Positions 57,848 through 63,617 of a stretch of DNA of 64,000 bases are shown piece by piece (the stretch's first letter is position 1; each line of letters begins with the position of its first letter). The stretch is from sequence record LC494302.1; one strand, 5' to 3'. The DNA comes from Escherichia phage SP27. Made by a program: the position numbers and the translations under genes. The notes under the pieces were generated by a model. That model made no database searches. It was not told the DNA's origin and was given only the letters and a program-made list of their open reading frames with translations.

Positions 57848-58045
57848 ATGCGTATTTTAACTAAAGAACAGCACCACGAAAGACTTATCAATAACATGGC
57901 TATGATAATGTATAAGTCCCATGACCGTGGTATTGCCTATAAGCGTGAATTAATTATGGCACTATTCATTGGAACTAACTTTCAGGAAAGGTATGTCAAC
58001 GATTGGATTTGGTATTTAATTGAAGATATAACGAGTAAACTATGA
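57848..58045 (+). CDS. small protein, S2 tandem family (first member)
   Basis: GGAG RBS; motif IGTNFQERYV. Confidence 0.6.
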   Translation: MRILTKEQHHERLINNMAMIMYKSHDRGIAYKRELIMALFIGTNFQERYVNDWIWYLIEDITSKL

Positions 58046-58242
58046 AAATGCGTATTTTAAATAAAGAAGAATATCAATCACTGTTACGTAAAAACTTCAC
58101 AAAGATTTATAATACAGACACACACGTAGAACGAATGGAGTTATACCTTTTGATTACTTTGGGAACTAACTATCAGGAAAGATGGGTGATTCAATATATG
58201 GATACATTGAAAAATAAAATATTGTCCACGAGGAAACAATGA
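58042..58242 (+). CDS. small protein, S2 tandem family
   Basis: ATGA overlap; motif LGTNYQERWV. Confidence 0.6.
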   Translation: MKMRILNKEEYQSLLRKNFTKIYNTDTHVERMELYLLITLGTNYQERWVIQYMDTLKNKILSTRKQ

Positions 58243-58448
58243 AAACTATAACACGAACCCAATCATACGGTCTTATCTTGAAATACATGGACTTAATGGT
58301 GGATATCAGCAAAGACCTTCCTAAAACTGAAATTGAAGTTGCAAGAGCAGAGATCCGCATGTTGGCTGTACTGAACACAAACCATCAGGAAGATTATGTT
58401 GAAGAATGGATTCGATTTTTAATTCAAGATATAAAGAGTAAATTATGA
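58239..58448 (+). CDS. small protein, S2 tandem family
   Basis: ATGA overlap; motif LNTNHQEDYV. Confidence 0.6.
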   Translation: MKTITRTQSYGLILKYMDLMVDISKDLPKTEIEVARAEIRMLAVLNTNHQEDYVEEWIRFLIQDIKSKL

Positions 58449-58657
58449 TTTTTTTAACACCAGAAGAATATAAGAAACGTTTCAATTCCGCACAGGGTGA
58501 AATCTTACTTATATACCTTTCAAATGCAGACCTTAACTTATCAAGGGTATTAGAAAAAGATTTACTTATGGGTGCATTCCTTGATACAGACTTTCAGGTG
58601 TATTATGTAGGGGAATACTTAATTGCACTCCAGAATTACATTAAGAGTAAACTATGA
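58445..58657 (+). CDS. small protein, S2 tandem family
   Basis: ATGA overlap; motif LDTDFQVYYV. Confidence 0.6.
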   Translation: MIFLTPEEYKKRFNSAQGEILLIYLSNADLNLSRVLEKDLLMGAFLDTDFQVYYVGEYLIALQNYIKSKL

Positions 58658-58866
58658 ATAGCATTAACTCAAATCTATATACCGAACGCGTCGCGGCCAG
58701 ACAACTTGAAATTCTCATAGTATATGAAGAGACTGATGATTTAAACTTAGCATTAGTATTGGAAAATGATATACTATTGGGTGCATTCCTCGGCACAGAC
58801 TATCAGGAGCACTTCTTGAATGAGTATATAATTGCACTCCAGAAATACATTAAGAGCAAACTATGA
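58654..58866 (+). CDS. small protein, S2 tandem family
   Basis: ATGA overlap; motif LGTDYQEHFL; C-terminus near-identical to previous member. Confidence 0.6.
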   Translation: MNSINSNLYTERVAARQLEILIVYEETDDLNLALVLENDILLGAFLGTDYQEHFLNEYIIALQKYIKSKL

Positions 58867-59081
58867 AACATTTAAGTAATTACGAGAAGAATAAAATTAT
58901 CGTTGCTGCAATAAACAAATATTTTACACTTCCTCACACAGAAGGTTTATGTGTAAGGGAACACAGGATAAACACCACCGATATACGCATGATGGCTGTA
59001 CTGGGGACGAACTTTCAGGAAGAGTATGTTGTTGCACACATAGTTGCCCTCACTGATCTAATAAGGGACAAATGTAAATGA
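58863..59081 (+). CDS. small protein, S2 tandem family
   Basis: ATGA overlap; motif LGTNFQEEYV. Confidence 0.6.
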   Translation: MKHLSNYEKNKIIVAAINKYFTLPHTEGLCVREHRINTTDIRMMAVLGTNFQEEYVVAHIVALTDLIRDKCK

Positions 59082-59335
59082 AACACTTAACTGATGATGA
59101 ATTTGAAACTATAATTCGTAAACTAACCCCCATCACAAGGATAGTCTACGGTGACCCCAGCCTTACATGGAACCAAATGCGAGCTAAAGTTAATGAGCTA
59201 TGGTTGCTGTACTTTATGGGGACTCAATATCAAGATAAGTTTTGCACAGAATATATCGAACAATTAACGAATGTTATACAGGATAAACTAGATGATTATT
59301 TGCTCACAAAACATGAAGACTTTATCAGGAGTTGA
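59078..59335 (+). CDS. small protein, S2 tandem family (C-terminal read-through)
   Basis: ATGA overlap; motif MGTQYQDKF; usual stop at junction missing, ORF runs 20 codons further. Confidence 0.55.
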   Translation: MKHLTDDEFETIIRKLTPITRIVYGDPSLTWNQMRAKVNELWLLYFMGTQYQDKFCTEYIEQLTNVIQDKLDDYLLTKHEDFIRS

Positions 59336-59564
59336 GTATCAAACTGCCCTATTCTCTTTAATCCATGCCCTTAGAAAAAACAATGCCTTATATGGTGCAC
59401 CTGAAGTGGATGTTATCAACGGTGAACTTTATCTTATGAAATTCATTGGAACAAACTATCAAGATCTGTTCATTCAACGATACTTATCAGCATTAAGAAA
59501 CCAAATCCAATATAAAACCATCAAGGCCAAAAAAGAATGGAATAAACAATGCGACACAGACTAA
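59313..59564 (+). CDS. small protein, S2 tandem family (start uncertain, 59292 or 59313)
   Basis: motif IGTNYQDLFI; overlaps extended upstream ORF. Confidence 0.5.
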   Translation: MKTLSGVEYQTALFSLIHALRKNNALYGAPEVDVINGELYLMKFIGTNYQDLFIQRYLSALRNQIQYKTIKAKKEWNKQCDTD

Positions 59565-59797
59565 ATCACAAAATGTATTGTAAACTATTGCAGACATTGG
59601 CACAGAAACACTATGACACGGTATCTGGAATATTACCCTATGATATCATGCGTTTACTTCACTGTGAGGCCGAGATGCTTGTACTGATGACAGGCACTGA
59701 TAAAAACGCAATTGCCAAATCAATAGATATGTTCATCGAAGCACACTGCCAACACATGAGAACCGAAATCTGGAGGAAAGAGAATGATAATCCTTAA
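59549..59797 (+). CDS. small protein, S2 tandem family (divergent)
   Basis: motif MTGTDKNAIA; overlaps neighbours. Confidence 0.5.
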   Translation: MRHRLNHKMYCKLLQTLAQKHYDTVSGILPYDIMRLLHCEAEMLVLMTGTDKNAIAKSIDMFIEAHCQHMRTEIWRKENDNP

Positions 59798-61894: not shown

Positions 61895-62105
61895 TGAATA
61901 TCATACGATTGTAATGAAAACTAATAGTGCAATTTCTAAAAAATCAAACCCCAAGTACATACTGGAACACACATTTGAAGAACGTCAATTAGCTTTAGTT
62001 GAAGCAAAACTTCTTGCACTCCTAGGGACTAACTATCAAGAAGAATACATCAGAAAACTAATATACCTTTTAACTAAACATATAAGAAAAAGAAAAAATG
62101 CATGA
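61863..62105 (+). CDS. small protein, S2 tandem family
   Basis: motif LGTNYQEEYI. Confidence 0.6.
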   Translation: MLKNLKILTVNEYHTIVMKTNSAISKKSNPKYILEHTFEERQLALVEAKLLALLGTNYQEEYIRKLIYLLTKHIRKRKNA

Positions 62106-62332
62106 AACACTTGACAGATGATGAACATGGGCTTATAGTAATGGATGTAATCAACATCGAATACAAAAAGTTGATACGCTACCGTTGTTATGAAGATAAG
62201 CAACTCGTTCTAGCAGAACAGAAGTTGTTTCGACTCTTAAACACAAACTTCCAAGCACAATACGAAGAATCGTATATGTACCTTTTGGCGAGGAAAGCAA
62301 AAAGAGATTATGAAAATTTTAAGCAAAGGTGA
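62102..62332 (+). CDS. small protein, S2 tandem family
   Basis: ATGA overlap; motif LNTNFQAQY. Confidence 0.6.
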   Translation: MKHLTDDEHGLIVMDVINIEYKKLIRYRCYEDKQLVLAEQKLFRLLNTNFQAQYEESYMYLLARKAKRDYENFKQR

Positions 62333-62525
62333 TTCAGTAATATTACTTATAGAGAGTTCAAGTAAATTCTTAAACATAACACTGTCTGATATAGATGAAG
62401 ATGACAAAGAAGTACTGAGAGCAGATTTAAGAGTACTGTTACATATCGGAACAAACCTACAAGAAGAATATGTAGAATGCTACATCAATGAACTTAAAGA
62501 ATCAGTACTGAGAAAATGCAAATGA
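62310..62525 (+). CDS. small protein, S2 tandem family
   Basis: motif IGTNLQEEYV. Confidence 0.6.
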   Translation: MKILSKGDSVILLIESSSKFLNITLSDIDEDDKEVLRADLRVLLHIGTNLQEEYVECYINELKESVLRKCK

Positions 62526-62743
62526 AAATCATTACCGATGCAGAATACCTAACAATCATAAATGGACTGTTTTTGAAGCTCTTCGTCATTAACACATCAG
62601 ATATACCAGATATGGATAAAATTATTAAGAGAAATGAAGTCTATGTTCTAGCTACCCTTGGAACGAACTATCAAGAACACGACATTAAAGATTATATTAA
62701 TACACTTAAACGAGCGATTGAACTAAAATGCCAAAACCACTAG
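62522..62743 (+). CDS. small protein, S2 tandem family
   Basis: internal ATG 62522 overlapping upstream TGA; motif LGTNYQEHDI. Confidence 0.6.
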   Translation: MKIITDAEYLTIINGLFLKLFVINTSDIPDMDKIIKRNEVYVLATLGTNYQEHDIKDYINTLKRAIELKCQNH

Positions 62744-62943
62744 GAACAGCAGAATACATTGAACTAATGGCATTACACTTCTCATCCTTTCAGAAACTTA
62801 GGCGAGAATCAAAGAATGATTTAGAATATACCATCAGAGGTTCCGATTTAAGAATGCTTCTCACCCTAGACACAGATTCCCAAGAGCGATTTGTCAATGA
62901 GCATATTAGAGCACTTTTAATGGAAATTCAAAGTAAACTATGA
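62728..62943 (+). CDS. small protein, S2 tandem family
   Basis: motif LDTDSQERFV. Confidence 0.55.
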   Translation: MPKPLGTAEYIELMALHFSSFQKLRRESKNDLEYTIRGSDLRMLLTLDTDSQERFVNEHIRALLMEIQSKL

Positions 62944-63155
62944 AGATAATATCAAACCAAGAGTACTTGGCACTATTCAGGAAGAATAATCACAAATATA
63001 TGGCACTTGATTCAAGAACTGATATAAGTGAACTTGAAAAAAATCTTTTGCGTTCAGAGATGATAGTACTGACACTCTTAGGAACACAGCATCAAGAGAG
63101 AACTGTTAATTCACACATAGGTATTCTTATACAGATTGTACTGGAAAAGATATGA
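62940..63155 (+). CDS. small protein, S2 tandem family
   Basis: ATGA overlap; motif LGTQHQERTV. Confidence 0.6.
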   Translation: MKIISNQEYLALFRKNNHKYMALDSRTDISELEKNLLRSEMIVLTLLGTQHQERTVNSHIGILIQIVLEKI

Positions 63156-63373
63156 GAATCATAACACAACAAGATATTCTTAAGTTCACAAGGGTTCATG
63201 CATCTGAATTTGATGCTATATTATCAAAAAGTTACAACAACCCTTATACAGAAGATGTACATTACAGTGAATTATGGATGTATATACTTTTAGGTACAAA
63301 TAAACAAGAGCAAGCAGTACAGAAGTATTTGACAGCTTTACGTGATGCTACTGCTAATGGAGTATGTGTTTAA
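63152..63373 (+). CDS. small protein, S2 tandem family
   Basis: ATGA overlap; motif LGTNKQEQAV. Confidence 0.6.
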   Translation: MRIITQQDILKFTRVHASEFDAILSKSYNNPYTEDVHYSELWMYILLGTNKQEQAVQKYLTALRDATANGVCV

Positions 63374-63374
63374 T

Positions 63375-63617
63375 ATGAAAGTACTGACAGAACTAGAAAT
63401 GTATCATAGATTTAATAAGTACTATCATTTACTTAAGCCTATACAGAGGATTAAATGTCCATTTGAAGAGAAACAGGTTTTAATCTATGAGCACAAGTTC
63501 TTTGTATCATTAGGTACAGATCAACAAGAGTACTATTTGACGTTGTACTTGATTACATTAATAGATTTAATTCACTATAAAACAAAACAAGCTAATAAAG
63601 AGAAATATGAAAACTAA
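63375..63617 (+). CDS. small protein, S2 tandem family (last member)
   Basis: internal ATG 63375 (MKVLTELEMY); motif LGTDQQEYYL. Confidence 0.55.
   Translation: MKVLTELEMYHRFNKYYHLLKPIQRIKCPFEEKQVLIYEHKFFVSLGTDQQEYYLTLYLITLIDLIHYKTKQANKEKYEN

Follow-up and report, generated by a model that had tools for sequence, protein, structure and literature searches.

When analyzing a 64,000-nucleotide (nt) window of DNA from Escherichia phage SP27 (LC494302.1), we found that positions 57848 to 63617 hold 26 consecutive plus-strand genes, arranged head to tail and encoding one family of proteins of 64 to 91 amino acids (aa). These are 26 real genes under selection. We tentatively suggest that they may form an early, nonstructural repertoire whose members are diversified binding proteins directed against host or defense targets, a possible reading that draws on analogy with other large viruses. 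The source is an Asteriusvirus-type jumbo coliphage (PBECO4/121Q/phAPEC6 group), with 89 to 97% nt identity to PBECO4-group genomes, so the initial annotation was right to read the stretch as phage DNA.

That annotation had described about 26 tandem small genes, whose tiny products form one iterated family around a conserved core, and had called this unusual for a phage. When all 64 kb were scanned in six frames with an HMM built from the 26 members, exactly those members were matched, with no further one in the window on either strand even at E values of ≤10; with the open reading frame list, this fixes the count at exactly 26 members of one family. The independent PHROG model phrog_4148 matches 25 of them, with E values down to 9e-27, and phrog_28039 matches 13. 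Both represent the same protein family as the array, in PHROG entries that carry no function, structure, or genomic context, and the SHEFM2K record annotates its own array genes with them. No Pfam match, HTH families included, was found for any of the 26 members, nor was a PDB or fold match found for the family; the search for a related structure or a family with annotated function returned only PHROG, where the function field is blank. At 50% identity, the family comprises 81 clusters in a set of 1.84 billion representatives. The family and its conserved core are real, and "unusual" is a fair word for it.

When the longest ATG starts are used, 12 of the 25 junctions are 4-nt ATGA overlaps and 10 are overlaps of 10 to 44 nt, while the remaining three are gaps of +1, +29, and +1 nt. 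Shine-Dalgarno (SD)-like motifs are found at 14 of the 26 starts, a higher share than the 22% seen for other ATGs (Fisher P = 0.003). To judge from the sequence, such tight packing fits a single polycistronic unit. All members lie on the plus strand, and dN/dS values for individual genes come from comparison with orthologues in eight related phages. The array opens with member 1 (57848 to 58045; 65 aa; phrog_4148 E value, 7e-20; dN/dS, 0.32) and member 2 (58042 to 58242; 66 aa; 0.75). Further along are members 6 (58863 to 59081; 72 aa; 0.20), 7 (59078 to 59335; 85 aa; 0.30), 10 (59784 to 59999; 71 aa; 0.34), 13 (60420 to 60650; 76 aa; 0.24), 20 (62102 to 62332; 76 aa; 0.32), 21 (62310 to 62525; 71 aa; 0.31), and 24 (62940 to 63155; 71 aa; 0.51). 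Member 8 (59292 to 59564; 0.39) has 90 aa from its first ATG and 83 aa from the ATG at 59313. The last member in the window, member 26 (63375 to 63617; 0.18), has 80 aa from the ATG at 63375 and 91 aa from a GTG at 63342.

The family consensus from the alignment of the 26 is MKxLxxxEY...E......LGTNYQExYV..YI..L...I..K. The T is invariant, and the Q, one L, and the initial M are at least 90% conserved. The motif reads LNTNHQE in member 3 (58239 to 58448; 69 aa; dN/dS, 0.45), LGTDRQE in member 17 (61417 to 61671; 84 aa), and LDTDSQE in member 23 (62728 to 62943; 71 aa; 0.46). The outlier is member 9 (59549 to 59797; 82 aa; 0.21), which has MTGTDKNAIAKSID in place of the motif and is still recognized by the family HMM with an E value of 4e-19.

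Purifying selection acts along the whole array. Values of dN/dS per gene range from 0.11 in member 19 (61863 to 62105; 80 aa) to 0.87 in member 25 (63152 to 63373; 73 aa), the most relaxed of the 26, and all are below 1; the pooled array gives 0.31 to 0.38 against the eight relatives. By alignment column, dN/dS is lowest in the motif (0.17), 0.35 to 0.50 in the N-terminal and variable parts, and 0.69 in the tails. Compared with 49 neighboring genes of the direct terminal repeat (DTR) in the same phage pair, the array has a higher dN (0.065 versus 0.025) and a higher dN/dS (0.38 versus 0.20). No site or region in the array reached a dN/dS above 1, so the diversification could reflect relaxed constraint instead of an arms race.

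Structure prediction, which the initial annotation had recommended, gave a confident small four-helix fold. The AlphaFold2 model of member 22 (62516 to 62743; 75 aa) has a pLDDT of 95.7 and a pTM of 0.80, with helices at residues 8 to 16, 19 to 26, 32 to 47, and 53 to 73 and a beta-bridge between residues 4 and 50. The motif-less member 9 was modeled with a pLDDT of 88.5 and the same helical layout. No transmembrane segment was found in the array members, which are predicted to be soluble proteins of about 70 residues built on a common small four-helix scaffold whose surfaces vary. From the model and general knowledge of helix capping, LGTNYQE would be a structural signature that connects and caps helices and not a catalytic site: L-G would terminate helix 3, T would pair with the N-terminal MKxL strand through the beta-bridge, and helix 4 would be capped by N-x-x-E. 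The conserved polar residues T, N/D, Q, and E could also constitute a shared functional site rather than helix caps alone. Predicted pI values range from 4.4 (member 5) to 9.9 (member 19); they are at least 8 in 17 of the 26 members and below 5.5 in four. Many members end in a basic tail (KSKL, K-x-K), which is partly explained by the SD sequence and ATGA junction embedded in the coding sequence, AAGAGTAAACTATGA.

The paralogues are old: however far apart they lie in the array, they are about 30% identical in amino acid sequence. Exceptions are four adjacent pairs with 45 to 61% amino acid and 72 to 80% nt identity: members 4 (58445 to 58657; 70 aa; dN/dS, 0.31) and 5 (58654 to 58866; 70 aa; 0.26) at 51% amino acid identity, members 11 (59996 to 60214; 72 aa; 0.29) and 12 (60205 to 60423; 72 aa; 0.48) at 45%, members 14 and 15 at 45%, and members 17 and 18 (61643 to 61894; 83 aa; 0.25) at 61%. 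Member 14 (60652 to 60891; 0.65) has 79 aa from the ATG at 60652 or 88 aa from a TTG at 60625, and member 15 (60921 to 61184; 0.38) has 87 aa from the ATG at 60921 or 96 aa from a TTG at 60894. TRF placed the tandem duplication that would have given rise to this pair at 60593 to 61081 on the plus strand (period, 269 nt; 77% identity), and a second one, for members 17 and 18, at 61422 to 61857 on the same strand (period, 220 nt; 79% identity). The 35-nt junction repeat noted initially is real and lies within the former, a 226- to 269-nt tandem duplication in which 60590 to 60815 and 60859 to 61084 are 76% identical. The accompanying claim that neighbors are generally closer than distant members did not hold (Mantel-type permutation P = 0.86), since only the four pairs stand out. 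Recent serial duplication likewise fails as a general description, given the low identity and the 18 orthologue slots kept in nine phages, although the four adjacent pairs do look later. This slot conservation indicates that most of the array is older than those phages.

The array has probably been noticed before and is thus probably not new. In one sentence without coordinates, Hua et al. (mBio 2017; PMC5646251) mentioned "more than 30" "very similar" copies in phage 121Q, solely as evidence for their proposal of genome expansion by tandem duplication. We infer from the copy number that this passage refers to the array: 121Q, also an Asteriusvirus, carries an array orthologous to this one, its p330 is the best phrog_4148 match in SHEFM2K, and about 28 to 31 copies per genome are compatible with that count. 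"Very similar" is too strong for members that are about 30% identical.

The array lies just outside the DTR, which is about 21 kb long. Mapping by blastn from phages with determined termini placed the DTR homologue at approximately 36822 to 57750. Its inner edge is marked by the 23-mer GCGGGTAACCTTAGCGACTTCGA at 57740 to 57762, which occurs once in the window and is invariant in eight phages, including the divergent Turkey5. The array begins about 98 nt past this edge; the DTR ends 98 nt upstream of the first array gene in fEgEco12 (position 20993; PMC13070987) and 99 nt upstream in vB_Ec-M-J (position 21525). A promoter scan found a candidate sigma-70-like promoter on the plus strand at 57790 to 57817, TTGATT-16-TATTAT, a consensus match only and a weak one (9 of 12 positions), kept in all eight aligned phages and reading TTGACT-16-TATTAT or TAAAAT in relatives. 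A GGAG Shine-Dalgarno sequence (57839 to 57842, plus strand) stands 5 nt before the first start codon, and the region around it, GGAGTCCC, is invariant in eight phages. The upstream DTR holds 12 perfect TTGACA-16/17-TATAAT promoters, as expected of an early region; CBB, a related phage, has RpoD-like promoters marking its terminal repeat as well as the region presumed to be early (PMC5259590). The array may therefore be pictured, from its sequence, as one translationally coupled operon read from the conserved candidate promoter between the DTR edge and gene 1. A position behind a host-type promoter beside the DTR would make its products early and nonvirion, by analogy with SPO1 and T5, and the orthologues gp467c to gp489c are absent among 62 virion proteins of phAPEC6 (PMC7247149).

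Copy number is 26 to 29 in close relatives, approximately 17 to 20 in divergent ones, and 16 in a divergent metagenomic phage. Eighteen orthologue slots are common to all nine close phages, and the others are present in some only or hold alternative alleles. Identity to a single relative flips gene by gene between 100% and 45 to 77%. Member 16 (61181 to 61432; 83 aa), for instance, is an alternative allele with 100% amino acid identity to fEgEco12 and 42 to 45% to phAPEC6 and PBECO4. Alleles are swapped gene by gene among related phages. Hypervariability between lineages extends beyond the array to everything inside the DTR boundary, so fast turnover is not specific to this family. In Klebsiella phages of the genus Alcyoneusvirus, distant homologues (RaK2_00362, K64-1 gp484, and Muenster gp048, gp049, and gp059; E values of 1e-6 to 1e-11) share the signature E..L..LGT..QE...YI..L...I..K. 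They form no large array: only three copies (2+1) are present at the corresponding genomic slot, some of them extended by about 50 aa at the C terminus, and in Muenster two of the three are the genes that immediately follow its own DTR. Sequence comparison shows that the family grew from a low-copy gene at this slot.

In the repertoire that we tentatively favor, each paralogue would be a binding module tuned to a distinct host, defense, or competitor target, and duplication, loss, and the exchange of single genes between cocirculating phages would keep renewing the set. Host takeover, antidefense, and regulation are all consistent with the position of the array, the absence from phAPEC6 virions, and the fast mosaic evolution. 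Among these, regulation through DNA binding is the least favored, given the lack of HTH or other Pfam matches and pI values that extend from acidic to basic.

We consider it unlikely that the array is mostly dispensable ballast, with copies that enlarged the jumbo genome by tandem duplication, as in the proposal of Hua et al. (PMC5646251), lingering under weak constraint without distinct functions. The narrow family distribution, the varying copy number, a dN/dS about twice that of neighboring DTR genes, a frameshift-split copy in BF17, and a truncated 52-aa copy in PBECO4 would fit, but each of the 26 reading frames is intact and under purifying selection, scaffold columns are conserved despite the age of the paralogues, 18 slots are retained across nine phages, and start, stop, and SD signals for coupled translation are maintained. 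Moreover, these phages package defined DTR ends (PMC13070987), which leaves no obvious role for a few hundred base pairs of filler.

Equally doubtful is that the members are nucleic acid-binding regulators, such as small transcription or translation factors reprogramming host or phage expression. Their small helical proteins, frequent high pI, basic tails, and presumed early region speak for this; however, no member matches a Pfam family, four are acidic, the tail is in part a by-product of the junction, and a conserved recognition surface would be expected. A role within the phage, as adaptors or chaperones paired one to one with other expanded families or as hetero-oligomer subunits, seems improbable to the same degree. 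Candidate partners would be the arrays of ~180-aa proteins downstream or RCC1-like virion proteins. Translational coupling would favor fixed stoichiometry, other tandem families occur in the same genome region, EC.P1/UB has a natural fusion of the family domain to a C-terminal domain (P0196), and C-terminally extended versions occur in Klebsiella phages (P0188, Muenster 059). Yet the proteins were not detected in phAPEC6 virions (PMC7247149), and no family member was found in the 17-kb post-DTR stretches scanned in CBB and fENko-Kae01, which do carry large post-DTR arrays. A common assembly interface is also hard to reconcile with surfaces that are not conserved from one paralogue to another.

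Still less probable is action against other phages or in carrier-state persistence (superinfection exclusion or immunity to effectors of related phages) instead of against the host. Allele exchange among cocirculating relatives, the frequent persistence of Asteriusviruses in E. coli isolates (bioRxiv 10.1101/2024.12.31.630880), and toxin-like genes in the DTR of relatives (ParE-like in L012 and YafQ-like in Muenster) point this way, but these signals fit a host-directed reading equally well. Finally, a noncoding DNA or RNA repeat with incidental reading frames, which the initial annotation had named as a possible refutation, is refuted by the codon-level analyses: a 50-nt block around the motif does recur at 60 to 78% nt identity, but conserved G, T, and Q codons are fixed at positions 1 and 2 and vary at position 3 (GGA/GGC/GGG/GGT, ACT/ACA/ACG, and CAA/CAG), every gene has a dN/dS below 1, an independent protein model matches 25 of 26, TRF detects just two local duplications and no array-spanning repeat, and Rfam gives no match.

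The host-directed repertoire has a parallel in SPO1, whose terminal region carries a host takeover module of 26 small early genes (PMC6873191). Both phages are large virulent myoviruses with long terminal repeats, and each has about 26 small proteins encoded at a genome end in operons with host-type promoters. However, the SPO1 genes lie inside the terminal redundancy and are mutually unrelated, and several have toxicity or known targets (PMC6873191), whereas the array genes are paralogues situated immediately beyond the repeat. In this phage, the DTR itself, with about 50 small, promoter-rich genes, corresponds more closely to the SPO1 module.

Poxviruses carry terminal host-range multigene families, and turnover of the array would, by analogy, resemble that of multigene families beside the terminal repeats in large DNA viruses of eukaryotes. 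The likeness to poxvirus and ASFV families is one of analogy only, as hosts, folds, and sizes differ. The ASFV families MGF100, MGF110, MGF300, MGF360, and MGF505 share with the array same-orientation tandem paralogues, variable genome ends, and copy number differences between isolates, and some of their members antagonize host immunity (PMC10006314).

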